Source: a phage
Direction: 5' to 3' (one strand)
DNA: 64,000 bases
Assembly (NCBI GenBank): GCA_038450185.1
Contig: GCA_038450185.1_4765.1
Part shown: one piece after another, positions 27,915-42,162 of the stretch
How the letters are laid out: each line of letters begins with the position of its first letter
Numbering within the stretch: position 1 is the stretch's first letter
Translations under genes and position numbers: made by a program
Notes under the pieces: model-generated
Told to the model about the DNA's origin: nothing
Seen by the model: the letters and a program-made list of their open reading frames with translations, nothing else
Database searches by the model: none

Positions 27915-28889
27915 TTACATCCCTAACAGAGCGTCAAGATCATCCAGATCAGAAGCGGAGGAAGTACCGCCACCCAGGTCCAGAGATGCCATCAGGTCAT
28001 CAGCGGAAGAATCTAACGCCGTGCTAGCTGCGTTAATACCAACTACAGTGCTAGCTGCGGTCATACCAGAATCGAATGCATTCATCTGTGCGTCAAAATC
28101 GTCAAGCTGGCTGTTAATCGCTGCCGCAGCACTGGAAGCCGCAGCACCAGCTACCATAGAAACGCCCATAGTTTTCTTAAATTTGGTTTCCAGTTCATCG
28201 AACGGTTTAAACTGGCTAGGCGCTACAATCTCACTCAGATCAACCATGTTTTCCATCAGATATTTCTGATATGCTTCGTCTTCAATTTTCGGAAGCTGTG
28301 ATTGCTGCATGAAACGAGAATCATCATAGTTCTGGTGTTTATCAACCTTCTTAGCTTTCAGGAGGAAGTTAGCACCGGAGAACACACAAGTTACATCGAC
28401 CGGAACTTCGCCCATGTCGGTATTCACGTTCACCATTGCAACGATCTTATCATAAATTTTCTGACCGAAGCGGAATTTGAATACCTTACCTTCATTTTCT
28501 GGTGCTTGAGGATCTTTCAGTACCAGAATATTTGCGTAGTAAGACGCTTTACGCTTAATCAGTTGCCATTCGGTTTTATCGGTATTGTACAAGTCTTTTT
28601 CGTTAATATATTTGCACACAGGGCAAGAATCAAAATCACCGTGGGTGCTAGAGCAGTTTTCCCAATACCATTTGCCATTAACTTTGAAGGAATGGTTTAC
28701 CAGTTTCACAATCGGCAGACCGTCTTCTGTCTTAGACGGCAGGAAGCGAATCAGGGCTTCACCGTTACCTGCTGCATCAGTCTTAATCTTCCACTCTTTC
28801 GGATCTTCTTTGGAGAAACCGTTGCCACCTTTCAGTGCGGCCAGTTGAGCTTGCAATTTGGAGCTATCTTGACGACGAAACATGTTCAT
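27915..28889 (-). CDS. 32: single-stranded DNA-binding protein
   Basis: IRFLPSK...[24 protein letters not shown] matches the T4 gp32 zinc-binding core; acidic C-terminus. Confidence 0.9.
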
Positions 28890-28949: not shown

Positions 28950-29546
28950 TTAATTGCTTGTCAATACTTTATCAATTATATCTAACAGTTTTGGCTTTCT
29001 ATTTTCAAATTCTAACATCTCTTCGGGAGAAATGTCAACTACTTCTGTTTTGTTGAAAAAGTTTGGGTCTATAGCATCAGCAACAAAGTTTCTCGCAAGT
29101 GCTGCCGCTTTCTCATGAACATATATTCCCAAATATATCAACTTCTTTCTTTCGACCTGAATATTGGCAACATATTTACCATCTCGTTTATAAAGACTAA
29201 CACCGATATATTCAGACGATCGACCTTTCTGTTTACCCATATTTCTTGAGTTTTGTTGCTCGTTCGCATCTCTCAAGTTTTCAATCCGATTATCTGTTAT
29301 AATTCGGTTAACATGGTCAACGTATTTTGGCATGTATCCATGATGCATAAAGAAAATTATTCTATGCTCTTTATGATGTTTACCATCGATACACACCAAT
29401 CTGTATCCATGACTAGGATTAACTCCACCAGCTCTAGATCCGACTTTATGCTTTCGGTTTGTCGATATCTTGCAAATCAGCTTACCGTTATCATATTTAA
29501 AGAGTTCATGACAACGAGCATACAATTCAGGATCATATGTTTTCAC
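28950..29546 (-). CDS. HNH endonuclease with AP2-type DNA-binding domain
   Basis: HNH motif HHKEHRIIF...DHVNRI..DNRIENLR; AP2-like YIGVSLYKRDGKYVANIQV...IYLGIY; lies between genes 32 and 59. Confidence 0.6.
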   Translation of the reverse strand: MKTYDPELYARCHELFKYDNGKLICKISTNRKHKVGSRAGGVNPSHGYRLVCIDGKHHKEHRIIFFMHHGYMPKYVDHVNRIITDNRIENLRDANEQQNSRNMGKQKGRSSEYIGVSLYKRDGKYVANIQVERKKLIYLGIYVHEKAAALARNFVADAIDPNFFNKTEVVDISPEEMLEFENRKPKLLDIIDKVLTSN

Positions 29547-30210
29547 CTTTTAACCTCGATATTTCTTTACACTCTTTAACTACTTTAACAAATAATGCTC
29601 TTGCTTTTGCGGCGTCAATAACAAGTAGTTTCTTGTACGCCTTCATTTTAACACTATAAGTTTGCCAAATCAAGTCTTTGGCTACCTTGTCGTGTTCGTC
29701 GATTATATTTAGAAAGCTATCTAACAACATAAACGACTCAAACGATATAATCCGATTTTGCAGTAGTTTAAAAATACCGCTTGTTTCGGTTGCGGGATTA
29801 TATGTAATTAGCTCTTTAAGAGTAACCCCGCGTTTCTCGGAGAAGTATACCAGACTTTTAATGTCATCGTCAAATCTTGTTGCTGCATCGGTTATCTTTC
29901 CTATGTATTCCATATAAAAGCCGTATGCGTCAACATCAGTGATTTCACCTACCCATGCATCGGTATTAGCTACCAGATTGCTTAGGAATAGGAAGTATAA
30001 TTCTCTTAGATTGTATTTTTCCGCTAATTTCGCGAAATAATACTTATCTCTGCGTTTATTGAATGCGGCATCAGATAACCGCATCCTCCAATTATATTTT
30101 ACGCAATCATAACGCCCGTTCATATGAGCTTTCATCATGCAATATAACATATACACAGATTTAGCATTAATTCGCATATCTGGATCTGGAGGAAGACGGT
30201 TTCTGATCAT
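29533..30210 (-). CDS. 59: helicase loader gp59
   Basis: Size (225 aa), position between 32 and 33, and similarity to the recalled T4 gp59 N-terminus. Confidence 0.65.
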   Translation of the reverse strand: MIRNRLPPDPDMRINAKSVYMLYCMMKAHMNGRYDCVKYNWRMRLSDAAFNKRRDKYYFAKLAEKYNLRELYFLFLSNLVANTDAWVGEITDVDAYGFYMEYIGKITDAATRFDDDIKSLVYFSEKRGVTLKELITYNPATETSGIFKLLQNRIISFESFMLLDSFLNIIDEHDKVAKDLIWQTYSVKMKAYKKLLVIDAAKARALFVKVVKECKEISRLKGENI

Positions 30211-30219
30211 ACATACCCC

Positions 30220-30489
30220 TTAAATATCGAGAGTGTTGGTCGGTTCGTCGATCACTCCCTTCCTGAGTGTTCTATTTACTATACATTCTTGTGTGATCTT
30301 GTCAATAATGGACACCGGAATATACTTCTGATAGTGACCATATTCTATAGAGTTTTCCTCTACAAACTGAGTGGTCGCTTCAAGATAAGTCAATCCCTCT
30401 TCAACAACCAGTTTTTCGATTGCAAGACCGTTTGCTGTTTTGTTCGCGGCTTTTACCGCATGTTCATTAAGCATTGAACACCCGATCAT
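30220..30489 (-). CDS. 33: late transcription accessory protein gp33
   Basis: Small acidic protein with EEGLTYLEATTQFVEENSI region at the T4-syntenic position. Confidence 0.5.
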   Translation of the reverse strand: MIGCSMLNEHAVKAANKTANGLAIEKLVVEEGLTYLEATTQFVEENSIEYGHYQKYIPVSIIDKITQECIVNRTLRKGVIDEPTNTLDI

Positions 30490-30742
30490 AGAGTTCTACC
30501 GCTTCGTCGCGTTCTGCTTCGAAGGTTTCGCGCTGTTGCTGGTGATACAGTTTAAACAGAATGCCCCACATTTTACCATCTACGCCTAATTCTTCTTTAG
30601 CACGCTGTTTGATCTCTTTGATCTTATCGCCATATGCTTCTTGAATTGTTTTCTGATCGCTGGCTTCTTTAATCAGTTGTGCCAGGGTATTTCCGTGTAC
30701 ATTTTCATCGAATACTACTTTTTCTTTTTTCTGTTCAGTCAT
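30467..30742 (-). CDS. dsbA: double-stranded DNA-binding protein
   Basis: 91 aa; KEASDQK...AKEELGVDGKMWGILFKLYH...ELYDRVF matches T4 DsbA. Confidence 0.7.
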   Translation of the reverse strand: MTEQKKEKVVFDENVHGNTLAQLIKEASDQKTIQEAYGDKIKEIKQRAKEELGVDGKMWGILFKLYHQQQRETFEAERDEAVELYDRVFNA

Positions 30743-30747
30743 AATAT

Positions 30748-31350
30748 TTAACCCTCTTTCGTCATTAATTGAAAACCACGTTCAGCTTTTGAAATTTCGC
30801 TAGGACTTAAATCGTCACCAACATATTCTAGCATCATTTCTCGGATAATGTCAAGTGCTTTTTCATCACCTGATTTTAACTCGAACTCAAGTTCATAATT
30901 TGCGCTTGTGTTGATAGTATATCTACCTATTCCTGCATAATTAAATGCATCTGTGCATATTTCAACTAAGCCTACACCAGTATCAATTGTTCTAGCTACT
31001 CTCGCTGTCATCACATAAAATTGCGGTCTAAGTTGTGTTAAATTGACACCCAGACAATCAACAAATTCAGAAAAATCTTGATAATTACATAACACTATTT
31101 CTTCTCGGTTAAATAAACCGCTTTCGTGACTTCCATGTTTTATTAGAAATTTATTTGTCTTTTTGTCAAGACGTGCATACACTCCCTGTTTATGTAAAAT
31201 ATATTCTTCGTCATCATAATACGATTCTAGCTTATTATAGATTTTTCTGTCTACAATACTATAACAATCATATAACTTAGAACATGCGTCAAAAATAGAC
31301 TTAAGCCCTTTGTTTGACCTTGCATAGTATTTTAATTCAAGTTCTTTCAT
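30748..31350 (-). CDS. CYTH-like triphosphate tunnel metalloenzyme domain protein
   Basis: N-terminal ExExK signature MKELELKYY and C-terminal acidic strand ELEFELK; 200 aa. Confidence 0.4.
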   Translation of the reverse strand: MKELELKYYARSNKGLKSIFDACSKLYDCYSIVDRKIYNKLESYYDDEEYILHKQGVYARLDKKTNKFLIKHGSHESGLFNREEIVLCNYQDFSEFVDCLGVNLTQLRPQFYVMTARVARTIDTGVGLVEICTDAFNYAGIGRYTINTSANYELEFELKSGDEKALDIIREMMLEYVGDDLSPSEISKAERGFQLMTKEG

Positions 31351-31360
31351 ATGTCAATCC

Positions 31361-32308
31361 TTAGAACTCACCAATTTTCTGCAACATTTTAACTAACGCA
31401 TTTGTTACAAAATAGTTATAAATCTTACCGCGTGGTGCTGGTTTAGATTTCTCCCATGACTCCAGGATCTGATTCTGGATATTGTCTGGGATCTCGTCAA
31501 AGTCAATCAACTGACGGTTTTCATCAAAGCGTCGTGCTTCTTCCTCTGTCATCAAAGACTTTGGATCTTCGGCATCGAAAATTTGCTCTAACCATTTGGT
31601 TGCAATTGGTTTAGCTCGTTCTCCTTCCAGTCGTGAGATAATGAAATCACTACGGCACTTGATCGAAGCTACACCGTCTTTTGCGTCACCCTTAACACAT
31701 TTTACCATAAGGTCTTTGTAAGGGCTACCATATTTGCATTTCTTCCATGCTTTCTGTACTGGCGCCCACTGTTTCACGTTTTTGTATTTGTGCAACTGTG
31801 TGTAGTCACCATCGCCGGAGTTGATTAGCACCTGGCGACCTTCTACAGAAAACTTTTTAGTTAACACAGCGATTATATCATCCGCTTCAACTTTGTCAAC
31901 CTTAATAACGTGATAAGGCATGTTCTCTTTAAACTCTTCGGTGATCTTATTGATCGCAGCAAAGATCATCTCCCAATCACGCGGATCTGCGTCTCGTTTT
32001 TCCTTACGGTTGCGTTTATAGTAAGGGGCGATATCACGTCGCCAGTAACCTTTGCTTGAATCAAAGGCAAGTACCGTAATTGGGTATTGCTCTTTGAATT
32101 TTGTCATATTATAACGCATGGTGTCAAGAATAAGATGACGGATCATGCCTTCACTAATAGGGTCTTCCGGTTTAAAGGTATGCGAGATAGTAGCAATCAT
32201 AAGCTGCGACATATCAATCAAATGCACACCTTCCGGCAGTTTATCTTCTGGATCATCGAAGAAATCATTAAGTGTAGCGGTAGTTTTTGTAAACGGGTTA
32301 TACGTCAT
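31361..32308 (-). CDS. rnh: RNase H (FEN-family 5'-3' exonuclease)
   Basis: 315 aa; multiple matches to T4 Rnh (GYWRRD, NMPYHVIKVDKVEADD, HKYKNVKQW, VRSDF, IDFDEIPDNI). Confidence 0.85.
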   Translation of the reverse strand: MTYNPFTKTTATLNDFFDDPEDKLPEGVHLIDMSQLMIATISHTFKPEDPISEGMIRHLILDTMRYNMTKFKEQYPITVLAFDSSKGYWRRDIAPYYKRNRKEKRDADPRDWEMIFAAINKITEEFKENMPYHVIKVDKVEADDIIAVLTKKFSVEGRQVLINSGDGDYTQLHKYKNVKQWAPVQKAWKKCKYGSPYKDLMVKCVKGDAKDGVASIKCRSDFIISRLEGERAKPIATKWLEQIFDAEDPKSLMTEEEARRFDENRQLIDFDEIPDNIQNQILESWEKSKPAPRGKIYNYFVTNALVKMLQKIGEF

Positions 32309-32310
32309 AA

Positions 32311-32496
32311 TTAAGTTCTCTCCACTCTCACAACAACATATTCGCCAAACGAGTTAGATACTTCACGATCATACCCGTATTTCTCCATAACTCGCAGAAT
32401 TGCATTGTTTAATTCGGCACGGAAATAATTATAATCCTTATCAGGGATTCTGTCAACTACCCATTTTGCACCTTCTGACAAATCAACTTTAACCAT
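32311..32496 (-). CDS. hypothetical small protein (61 aa)
   Basis: ORF directly upstream of rnh. Confidence 0.4.
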   Translation of the reverse strand: MVKVDLSEGAKWVVDRIPDKDYNYFRAELNNAILRVMEKYGYDREVSNSFGEYVVVRVERT

Positions 32497-32534: not shown

Positions 32535-32542
32535 TATAAATA
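32535..32542 (+). promoter_or_regulatory. T4-type late promoter TATAAATA
   Basis: Exact TATAAATA about 29 nt upstream of the gene 34 ATG. Confidence 0.65.
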
Positions 32543-39246: not shown

Positions 39247-42162
39247 ATGGCAGATTTAAGCAGAATCCAATTTAAACGTACTAGCACTAAAGGCCGTCGA
39301 CCTGATGCTGGTACGATGAATCCGGGGGAATTGGCAATCAACCTTGCGGATCAATATCTTCTTACTAAAAATGATTCCGGTGCTATTATCAATTTAAGTT
39401 GTCCTCCGGTTTATGACAGCGATGTTACAATGGCGGGTAAGGTTAAAGGAAATAATTATATTTTAAGTAAAACCGCTAATTATTTTGAAGACCAAACCGC
39501 GCGAGATCTTAATTATTTTGGTGCGTTTCGACCGAATAATGCTGATGGTTGGTCTAACTTGATTCTGAACATTCCTCATCCCAGCGGTAAAGCACACGGT
39601 CGCGGGTTTGAATTTGAATATGGTTCTAGTTCCTCTCAGGTTAAAACCTATGGCTTTGATAAGGATGGTAACAAGAGATTCAGCTTTCGCATGTATCACG
39701 AAGGTGATAAACCTACTCCCTCAGAATTGAACGTCTATAGCAAACAAGAAATTGACCGTATGTTTGTTAAGAACGTTAAAATGGTTGTTCCTTCTGGTGG
39801 TGCAACCCGTGGTTATTTTAAAATTGCATCCGCAATGATCCCGCAGAGTGGTCGGATGGCGTTTCTGCGAATCTATGGTGGTAATGGATATAATGTAAAC
39901 TCATATGATCAAGTTGATTTTCTTGAAATTGTTATTCGTAGTGGTAATAATAACCCTAAAGGCGTTAGTATTGCTGCATATCGTCGAAATTCTTTGAACG
40001 TCCATGAAGTATTTGCAATTAATACTTCCGGTGATAACTATGACATTTATGTTAACTATGGTCGCTTCACCGATAACGTTATTGTAGAGTTTGGAAAAAC
40101 TGTTGATGTTGCATTGACTGTTCACGATGTTCCTGAATTTTCGGCGACTAAACCAGAAACCGGAACTAAATTTGATGCTCGTGTTATTACTATGTTCAAC
40201 ACCGAAAACAAAGCCGGAACGTTGATGTTTGATAATAACTCACAAACAACCTATGATATTGTTAGCCTTAATAACGTACCAGACAACAATAAAAAATATA
40301 TGCGTAAATTCCGCAGTCGTGCGGCGGAAACAATATGGCATGAAACTGTTCAAGGTGATGTTTATCGCCTAGCGACAGGGGCTACCGATCAGAAAGAAGT
40401 GTTAAAGATTGTAGGTAGTGATGGTTTATTTGTCAATAGACTTCATCTGCAAGGCAATAACGCGATTCGTATGTGGCGTCCTACTGGTTGTAGTAACTAT
40501 TTTGAATATATGGATCAGCGAGACGGGGCTAATAAACGTCAAGGCTGGTTTGGTTTTGGTTCTACAGAAACCAACGATTTTCAATGGTATAGTGACGAAG
40601 GTAAAAACTTTGTTAAGCTAGAAGCAAGTGGTCAAGTATCTTTAAGCGCAGGTGCAACCAAAATTGTATACACTAATGGTCAATATGTAGCTGCCAATTC
40701 TGATGCATACCGTATGATCTTTGGTAATTATGGTGCATTCTGGCGTAATGACGGCACTAAAGTTTATCTTATGTCTACTGCCGAAAATGATAGATTTGGT
40801 GGCTGGAATGCCTATCGTCCATTCATTTATGATTTAACTTCCGGTAACGTTCAATTAGGCGGTGATGGTAACGAAGATGCATTAACGTTAGAAAGTGCTT
40901 CTCGTGCCGCTCGCTTTAGTAATGACGTTTACATTAAGAAAGGGCTTTTGACTTTCGACGCTGGGCGATTAAATTCCCGCGATTACTTCCGGTTTAACCA
41001 TTGGGGCGATAGCAATAACGGTCGCGATAACATTTTACAGCTTGACGATAGCATAGGTCCACACTTCACCACTGAACGTACTTTAGCAACTGGTTCAATT
41101 AAAACTAAATTCTTCGGTAATTTGGAATCTGCTGGTCAAATTAAATGGGGTAAAGGGACCGCCACATCTACGTTTACTCTACGTGTATGGGGTAGCGATA
41201 GCCGTAAACAAATATTTGAATGCGGCGATGAAAGCGGGTGGCATTGGTATACCCAACGCGCGGGCGGTCCTGATACTTCTGCAATTGATTTTGCCATCAA
41301 TGGTACTGTTAGGCCTCAAGCAATTCACACTGGCGGTAATATCACTATCAACGGTGCTGATATTGAGTTTAAACGCACTGGCAATAAGCACATCTGGTTT
41401 AGAGATCCAAACGGCTTAGAGTTAGGTCTGTTGTACTGCGATGATGCTGGCGTTATGCGTATGCGCGGTAAGAAACAAACCGAAGTCTGGAAATTCGGCG
41501 GTAAGATGATTCAACTTGAAACTGGTACTGTAACCGGTGGCGGTAGTGGTCTGATTCGTGGTAGCGTTGCTGGTGGTAGTTGGACTAGCTGGCGCGATCG
41601 TGCTTCCGGTTTACAGGTCGACTGTCAACAATCAACCGTTTCCGCTCATAACGTATGGAAAGCAACCCATCAAGGTAAATATCATATAGCAGCAATGGGT
41701 GTACACGTTCCTAGTGGTACTATCGGAAATGCTATGGTGCGTATGCACGTACACGATGCAACTTTTGACTTTGGTGCGAGCGGTGACTTCCAGGCAAGCC
41801 GTAATGGTAATTTTAACGATGTTTATATTCGTTCTGATGCTCGCCTTAAAATCAATAAGGAAGAGTATAAGGAGAATGCCACCGATAAAGTTAATCGCTT
41901 GACGGTATACACCTATGACAAGGTTAAATCTTTAACCGACCGTACTGTCATTGCTCATGAAGTTGGTATTATTGCTCAGGATCTTGAAAAAGAATTGCCG
42001 GAAGCCGTAACAACTTCTAAGATCGGCGATCCAGATAATCCAGAAGAGATCTTAACAATTTCTAACTCCGCTGTCAACGCTCTTTTAATTAAGGCGTTTC
42101 AGGAAATGAGCGAAGAACTTAAAGCCGTTAAAGCTGAACTAGCGGAACTTAAAAAGAATTAA
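39247..42162 (+). CDS. 37: long tail fibre distal subunit with C-terminal intramolecular chaperone domain
   Basis: N-terminus MADLSRIQFKRTSTKGRRPDAG..GELAINL matches T4 gp37; C-terminal roughly 108 aa begin at an S-D-A-R-L-K motif. Confidence 0.85.
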   Translation: MADLSRIQFKRTSTKGRRPDAGTMNPGELAINLADQYLLTKNDSGAIINLSCPPVYDSDVTMAGKVKGNNYILSKTANYFEDQTARDLNYFGAFRPNNADGWSNLILNIPHPSGKAHGRGFEFEYGSSSSQVKTYGFDKDGNKRFSFRMYHEGDKPTPSELNVYSKQEIDRMFVKNVKMVVPSGGATRGYFKIASAMIPQSGRMAFLRIYGGNGYNVNSYDQVDFLEIVIRSGNNNPKGVSIAAYRRNSLNVHEVFAINTSGDNYDIYVNYGRFTDNVIVEFGKTVDVALTVHDVPEFSATKPETGTKFDARVITMFNTENKAGTLMFDNNSQTTYDIVSLNNVPDNNKKYMRKFRSRAAETIWHETVQGDVYRLATGATDQKEVLKIVGSDGLFVNRLHLQGNNAIRMWRPTGCSNYFEYMDQRDGANKRQGWFGFGSTETNDFQWYSDEGKNFVKLEASGQVSLSAGATKIVYTNGQYVAANSDAYRMIFGNYGAFWRNDGTKVYLMSTAENDRFGGWNAYRPFIYDLTSGNVQLGGDGNEDALTLESASRAARFSNDVYIKKGLLTFDAGRLNSRDYFRFNHWGDSNNGRDNILQLDDSIGPHFTTERTLATGSIKTKFFGNLESAGQIKWGKGTATSTFTLRVWGSDSRKQIFECGDESGWHWYTQRAGGPDTSAIDFAINGTVRPQAIHTGGNITINGADIEFKRTGNKHIWFRDPNGLELGLLYCDDAGVMRMRGKKQTEVWKFGGKMIQLETGTVTGGGSGLIRGSVAGGSWTSWRDRASGLQVDCQQSTVSAHNVWKATHQGKYHIAAMGVHVPSGTIGNAMVRMHVHDATFDFGASGDFQASRNGNFNDVYIRSDARLKINKEEYKENATDKVNRLTVYTYDKVKSLTDRTVIAHEVGIIAQDLEKELPEAVTTSKIGDPDNPEEILTISNSAVNALLIKAFQEMSEELKAVKAELAELKKN

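Follow-up and report, generated by a model that had tools for sequence, protein, structure and literature searches.

The window analysed here, a 64,000-nucleotide stretch of phage DNA, derives from an RB49-like T4-type phage of the genus Krischvirus, the nearest record being Escherichia phage vB_EcoM_Skers with 98% nucleotide identity over the locus. Between rnh and dsbA lies a minus-strand ORF, initiated at ATG and included in the ORF list, that encodes 200 residues (Table 1). The three genes share the same strand and are tightly packed, with 5 nt separating the ORF from dsbA and 10 nt separating it from rnh. The initial annotation had described a product opening with an ExExK motif and carrying an acidic strand near the C-terminus, and this is what the translation gives: the protein begins MKELELKYY (E3-x-E5-x-K7) and Y152 is followed by ELEFELK at residues 153–159. 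We conclude that the ORF is a real, selected gene and not a chance frame, since full-length homologues occur in 59 phage records and 42 protein clusters and the dN/dS ratio is less than 1. The gene is low in G+C (32.5%; the window as a whole has 40.4%, rnh and dsbA 41%), as would fit a foreign origin. The statement that dsbA and rnh are adjacent in T4 is correct; in NC_000866 a gap of 8 nt separates them and no gene intervenes.

Two other features distinguish this neighbourhood. A 61-residue ORF assigned to phrog_3594 is placed between rnh and gene 34, the latter being on the plus strand. This ORF is kept in RB49 (RB49p247) and in Skers and is missing from T4, where rnh leads directly to gene 34. 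Between genes 32 and 59 there is a homing endonuclease gene of the HNH-AP2 type, which shares 14 nt with the end of gene 59 and is present in Skers but not in RB49 (gap of 652 nt as opposed to 66 nt). The T4 slot between genes 32 and 59 holds the unrelated GIY-YIG endonuclease SegG, and the two endonuclease genes appear to have invaded this intergenic site independently.

Table 1. Coordinates of features at the rnh–dsbA locus and active-site residues aligned with those of E. coli YgiF
Feature	Coordinates	Strand	Remarks
Gene 32	27915..28889	-	
HNH-AP2 homing endonuclease	28950..29546	-	
Gene 59	29533..30210	-	
Gene 33	30220..30489	-	
dsbA	30467..30742	-	PF11126, E 5e-22
CYTH gene, CDS	30748..31350	-	Stand-alone CYTH / triphosphate tunnel metalloenzyme domain, without CHAD or other domain
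Conserved 3' third	30748..30897	-	Codons 152–200: β8, helix, C-terminal SKAERG helix with K188 and R191
E-L-E-F-E-L-K	30874..30894	-	Codons 153–159, strand β8; E155 corresponds to metal-1 and E157 to metal-2 ligand
Variable central cassette	30898..31320	-	Codons 11–151, 423 nt; blastn breakpoints against RB49
Y-A-R-L-D	31165..31179	-	Codons 58–62, strand β3; from alignments, R60 = YgiF R56, D62 in place of YgiF R58
ExExK hallmark, E-L-E-L-K	31330..31344	-	Codons 3–7, strand β1; alignment to YgiF E4/E6/K8
Shine-Dalgarno AAGGA	31358..31362	-	7 nt upstream of ATG; overlaps rnh stop codon (31361..31363); read from sequence
rnh	31361..32308	-	PF09293, E 5e-38, plus PF02739
Sigma-70-like site	31899..31872	-	Perfect 12/12; upstream of CYTH gene
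61-residue ORF	32311..32496	-	phrog_3594
Sigma-70-like site	32456..32428	-	Perfect 12/12; upstream of CYTH gene
E3, E5			= YgiF E4, E6; metal site 2
K7			= YgiF K8; tunnel lysine
R60			= YgiF R56; catalytic arginine
K71			= YgiF K69; substrate binding
E155			= YgiF E160; metal site 1
E157			= YgiF E162; metal site 2

No T4 late promoter (TATAAATA) is found upstream of the CYTH gene on its own strand, the sole such site nearby, at 32535 on the plus strand, serving gene 34. Between positions 30000 and 32700 there are 19 sigma-70-like matches, nearly all on the minus strand, compared with 9.0 ± 2.9 in shuffled sequences. The gene is probably transcribed together with the replication genes in the early or middle phase. 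Two further sites match at 11 of 12 positions. The -35 box of the first (31357..31329) falls between the Shine-Dalgarno sequence and the start codon of the CYTH gene; the second (30854..30825) is upstream of dsbA, inside the conserved 3' third of the CYTH gene.

Assignment to the CYTH family

On its own, the protein matches no Pfam family at E ≤ 1, PF01928 included, and no NCBIfam family. Nothing significant is found among PDB sequences, where the sole match is to a Cas2 at chance level (E 0.78), and phrog_14893 is the only direct match of any kind. The search against PF01928 proposed in the initial annotation therefore fails for this protein but succeeds for its family: matches at E ≤ 1 are obtained for 20 of the 21 aligned members (best E 5.8e-8), in agreement with precomputed Pfam matches, so that we attribute the miss to divergence of this particular allele. 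Searching 1.84 billion representatives with the family profile retrieves 134 proteins at E ≤ 1e-3, mostly of approximately 200 or 500 residues. When the best ten of these remote relatives were scanned, eight matched PF01928, and one of the eight also has a CHAD domain, as does E. coli YgiF. YgiF is also the only match of the family profile among PDB sequences (E 0.026). Profile–profile alignment with hhalign against 17 CYTH domains (YgiF plus 16 proteins, all 17 matching PF01928) gives a probability of 99.5% and an E of 1.9e-22 over residues 1–198 for the protein alone, and 99.8% when the whole family profile is used.

The AlphaFold2 model, computed from a shallow alignment of 21 sequences of low diversity, has a pLDDT of 87 and a pTM of 0.79. 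It comprises eight main strands plus flanking helices and displays the eight-stranded antiparallel β-barrel of the tunnel fold. With this model as query, Foldseek returns from the PDB top matches that are all triphosphate tunnel metalloenzymes (TTMs), YgiF being first (E 2.4e-9, TMq 0.72). The PF01928-matching relatives, remote homology, profile–profile match and predicted fold together support the assignment, made in the initial annotation from the two motifs, as a YgiF-like stand-alone triphosphate tunnel metalloenzyme of the CYTH branch. No match to a CHAD domain is found, and no further domain follows the tunnel in this protein of 200 residues. A PADLOC scan for defence proteins with four alleles yields nothing meaningful, the single match being to CARF with an E of 0.008 and 12.7 bits.

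One remote relative, P0049, has a different architecture. In this protein of 462 residues the match to the phage CYTH profile is N-terminal (residues 12–175), in a part that has no Pfam CYTH match, and a P-loop kinase-like domain of the AAA_28 type (residues 253–404) is fused behind it.

The predicted active site

The ygiF gene was translated from MG1655 and aligned with the phage clade and the remote relatives, residue roles being taken from PMC4641920. The residues of YgiF shown to be important by mutagenesis or structure are E4, E6, R56, K69, E160 and E162 (Martinez et al. 2015, PMC4641920). The R56A exchange strongly impairs YgiF, and the E160 position is invariant across the TTMs characterised so far (PMC4641920). 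The glutamates of the phage protein fall on the catalytic positions of the family, E3, E5, E155 and E157 aligning with E4, E6, E160 and E162, and the remaining correspondences are given in Table 1.

Conservation of this site is high. The ExExK motif is invariant in 21 of 21 family members and present in 122–123 of the 133 remote relatives. E155 and E157 are likewise invariant in the family and are kept in 132 and 133 of the 133, respectively. R82, E84, R117, E130, D134, K188 and R191 are also conserved, and taken as a group the catalytic and further conserved residues are invariant or nearly so among the phage proteins and occur in 116–133 of the 133 remote relatives. All metal ligands and the catalytic arginine are the same in every allele class and in relatives with identity as low as 26%. 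The basic lining of the tunnel is intact save at one position, where the second arginine of the RxR motif is D62.

That exception forms part of a motif peculiar to the phage clade. On strand β3 these proteins carry Y-x-R-x-D where other CYTH proteins have a small residue in the pattern small-x-R-x-R. Position 62 is arginine in 125 of the 133 remote relatives, and Asp or Asn occurs only in three representatives from T4-like phage contigs (P0043, P0044 and P0046). Position 58 is Ala, Ser, Gly or Thr in 113 of the 133 and aromatic in two; the two most distant phage relatives have Val or Ile there. An aromatic residue in the pattern W/YxRxR, against which the thiazole ring stacks, is a mark of thiamine triphosphatases (Vogt et al. 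2021, PMC8233210). In thiamine triphosphatase the residue equivalent to Y58 is Trp. Compared with that pattern, the phage protein presents the aromatic Y58 and R60, with D62 replacing the second arginine. Judged from the alignments, the phage motif is a hybrid in which a thiamine triphosphatase-like aromatic is combined with an acid in place of the second phosphate-binding arginine. Because D62 removes that arginine, binding of bare PPPi may be weaker, and the pairing of Y58 with D62 hints at a substrate that carries an organic group. The clade-specific tunnel motif predicts an altered substrate specificity.

Hydrolase or cyclase

The initial annotation had offered a CyaB-type cyclase and a triphosphatase as alternatives. 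Three features discriminate the class IV adenylate cyclases (AC-IVs) from other members of the family: an HFxxxxExExK motif, replacement of the first arginine of xRxR by a small neutral residue, and replacement of the second glutamate of the β8 ExE by alanine (PMC8233210). The AC-IV cluster is small, with 141 bacterial sequences, and the 'adenylate cyclase' labels on other CYTH proteins have no experimental support (PMC8233210). In the phage protein the HF pair four residues before ExExK is missing, only M1 and K2 preceding E3; R60, the first arginine of xRxR, is retained and invariant, and so is E157, the second glutamate. With all three discriminators failing, a phosphohydrolase is to be preferred. 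The label 'adenylate cyclase', carried by three Krischvirus records among those listed, is probably wrong and a legacy misannotation. We predict an active two-metal phosphohydrolase rather than a cyclase, which retains the triphosphatase half of the original suggestion.

The central allele cassette

Comparison with RB49 reveals that the gene is a composite. The central cassette is approximately 50% identical in nucleotide and 42% identical in amino acid sequence to its RB49 counterpart and its boundaries are sharp. The flanking DNA, together with the first 30 nt and the last 150 nt of the gene, is 93–97% identical. The conserved 3' third, with 98% amino acid and 97% nucleotide identity, evolves at the level of the backbone. 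Fast amino acid evolution was considered as the main cause of the divergent centre and rejected, as synonymous sites there are saturated too, with pS approximately 0.8 against 0.10–0.18 in rnh, dsbA and the C-terminal third. Such saturation is better explained by old alleles moved by recombination than by a burst of amino acid change.

Among 41 protein clusters there are at least three allele classes, a lower bound, which share less than 50% identity in the centre on backbones that are approximately 95% identical. The RB49 type accounts for 34 clusters, the window type for six and a third type for one. Over the C-terminal 50 residues the median pairwise identity among the 41 is 96%. The window-type allele occurs in one of the 59 sequenced isolates, vB_EcoM_Skers. 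Comparison with the closest diverged allele of the window class gives a dN/dS ratio of 0.26 for the centre, 0.13 for the C-terminal part and approximately 0.08 for rnh, which indicates purifying selection on the centre that is more relaxed than on rnh.

Which faces of the barrel are free to vary? Over strands β2–β7 of eight phage-clade alleles, conservation is 71% at positions that share the parity of the catalytic residues and 30% on the opposite face (permutation p<5e-5), although lumen-facing positions were assigned from strand parity alone and, with parity set by the catalytic residues, the test is mildly circular. On this placement, the residues predicted to face the tunnel are kept across alleles. 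In a 49-kb comparison with RB49 there are two breaks only that represent diverged replacements of equal length, namely the cassette and a tail-fibre stretch (40401..40620, plus strand; 220 nt as opposed to 247 nt in RB49). The latter lies within an ORF at 39247..42162, a homologue of RB49p251 and the distal long-tail-fibre gene that is responsible for receptor recognition. The pair hints at diversifying pressure on the exterior of the CYTH protein, a hint that rests on one comparison. In the scheme that we propose, the alleles of the central two thirds would be ancient and would be kept in circulation by recombination through the conserved ends of the gene.

Distribution and earlier annotation

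A tblastn search with the protein identifies 59 phage records, and megablast with the dsbA–gene 33 DNA likewise identifies 59, which agree with the first set in their breakdown by organism name and in the host counts listed. Given the matching counts we take these to be the same records, in which case every Krischvirus-type genome in the collection has the CYTH gene. The order rnh–CYTH–dsbA is kept in RB49 and Skers, in metagenomic contigs with alleles of 87% and 55% identity, and in a more distant T4-like contig where rnh is 80% and the CYTH protein 41% identical. On short contigs with CYTH proteins just 26–38% identical the gene is still directly upstream of dsbA. The proposal of an accessory insertion consequently holds relative to T4 but not in the sense of a sporadic event, with 59 of 59 Krischvirus-type records carrying the gene and its position kept in distant T4-like contigs. 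The gene is extra relative to T4, yet an old and fixed feature of the Krischvirus lineage, and may be regarded as a fixed accessory gene packed with the replication genes rnh, dsbA, 33, 59 and 32.

Disrupted forms also occur. In vB_EcoM_G2494 (MK327935.1) the homologue matches in two pieces, corresponding to two CDSs labelled 'hypothetical protein', and a truncated form of 130 residues (P0042) is present in metagenomes and in BFVD (A0A482GBZ4). These split and truncated homologues suggest that the gene can be disrupted in viable phages.

The domain call is not itself new. The RB49 record carries on the orthologue the note 'similar to P45267, P30871, HI1598, ygiF', and Nolan et al. 2006 list 'RB49ORF244c CYTH domain 0.0026' (PMC1524935). 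With the call for the RB49 orthologue already published, the novelty lies in the divergent allele, the lumen motif of the clade and the allele-cassette structure. In the searchable literature we found no characterised phage CYTH protein, functional study or anti-defence role. A remark that jumbo-phage CYTH/MazG triphosphatases degrade unmodified NTPs is speculative (PMC7824862). Some Krischvirus phages have cytosine modifications made by an unexplained pathway; phage SAP is modified and TB34, which is 99.96% identical, has canonical cytosine (PMC13390438). A tie between the CYTH gene and this modification was considered, but there is no evidence for one: the two phages are nearly identical and SAP has the common RB49-type allele.

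Proposed function and alternatives

We consider it probable that the gene encodes a stand-alone, catalytically competent CYTH tunnel metalloenzyme that acts as a phosphohydrolase, and that it is a fixed Krischvirus gene with recombining central alleles. The mechanism that follows, from its metals and substrate to the direction of cleavage, is inferred by homology to YgiF and AtTTM3. A triphosphate substrate would be accommodated with one Mg2+ or Mn2+ ion in the lumen of the eight-stranded β-barrel, held by K7, R60, K71, R82, R117, K188 and R191, with E155 at metal site 1. A second metal ion on E3, E5 and E157 would activate water, and the terminal phosphate would be cleaved off. The default substrate by homology would be inorganic triphosphate, but in the light of D62 and the bulky or aromatic residue at position 58 an organic triphosphate, NTP/dNTP-like or thiamine-triphosphate-like, seems about equally plausible.

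A bolder version, which we regard as unlikely though worth stating, is that the enzyme is not a housekeeping PPPi-ase but a hydrolase dedicated to one particular organic triphosphate of the infected cell and serving phage takeover or counter-defence, with Y-x-R-x-D setting the specificity and the outer surface kept polymorphic by host immunity. If so, its target might, for example, be a molecule of the thiamine-triphosphate type that signals starvation or alarm, a nucleotide generated by a defence system or an unwanted (d)NTP. Polymorphism driven by host immunity would explain why the cassette and the tail-fibre gene are the sole two equal-length diverged replacements.

Very unlikely, in our judgement, is an RNA 5'-triphosphatase resembling the Cet1-type enzymes of eukaryotic viruses, which would take the γ-phosphate off primary transcripts or primers and in this way might, for example, hasten the 5'-end-dependent decay of host mRNA or assist RNase H in primer processing. 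The tunnel chemistry is shared, a fold search of BFVD yields many giant-virus capping triphosphatases, and the gene adjoins rnh, whose product processes RNA primers. The Cet1-like RNA triphosphatases (PF02940, mRNA_triPase) provide neither a family match nor the closest structural similarity.

Lower again we place a non-catalytic binding protein that has retained the tunnel fold, for example as a sponge for a phosphorylated signal or as the partner of a host protein, an interaction that the rapidly replaced outer surface would then reflect. Replacement of a phosphate-binding arginine by D62, the strong difference in outer surface between alleles and the receptor-recognising nature of the other replaced gene would all fit, but the invariance of metal ligands and catalytic arginine is unexpected had catalysis been lost. 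Least probable of all is a CyaB-type class IV adenylate (nucleotidyl) cyclase making cAMP or another cNMP in the infected cell, a name used in several GenBank records of Krischvirus phages but contradicted by the failure of all three discriminators of PMC8233210 and by a closest structure, YgiF, that is a hydrolase.

The phosphohydrolase that we favour is open to direct test, given that the gene is fixed in Krischvirus, a genus of coliphages often isolated and characterised for phage therapy and biocontrol. Having an exchangeable central cassette makes it a candidate for involvement in host–phage conflict. What is new here is the Y-x-R-x-D motif of the phage clade and the central cassette of deeply diverged alleles. 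These gains, with the doubt cast on the cyclase labels, are modest and do not overturn current knowledge.

Comparison with known systems

The nearest characterised relative is the tunnel domain of YgiF, an E. coli inorganic triphosphatase of the CYTH-CHAD type (PDB codes 5a60 and 5a61). The two proteins share approximately 20% identity. YgiF has 433 residues and includes a CHAD domain, whereas the phage-encoded protein has 200 and lacks one, and in the tunnel R58 and G54 of YgiF are replaced by D62 and Y58. With the CyaB-type class IV adenylate cyclase of Yersinia pestis (2fjt and 3n10) the protein has in common the CYTH superfamily, the tunnel fold and two-metal chemistry; it is without the HF motif, keeps the gatekeeper arginine and the second glutamate of ExE, and is not a member of that class. 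The mammalian 25-kDa thiamine triphosphatase differs in having arginine where the phage motif ends in aspartate. Overall similarity to this enzyme is lower than to YgiF, and the aromatic residue is lost, to Val or Ile, in the most distant phage relatives. RB49 ORF244c (RB49p245) and its Krischvirus orthologues in phrog_14893 represent the same gene in the same rnh–CYTH–dsbA position. The first 10 and last 50 residues of the RB49 protein are identical or nearly so to those described here, while over residues 11–150 amino acid identity falls to 42% and the synonymous sites are saturated.
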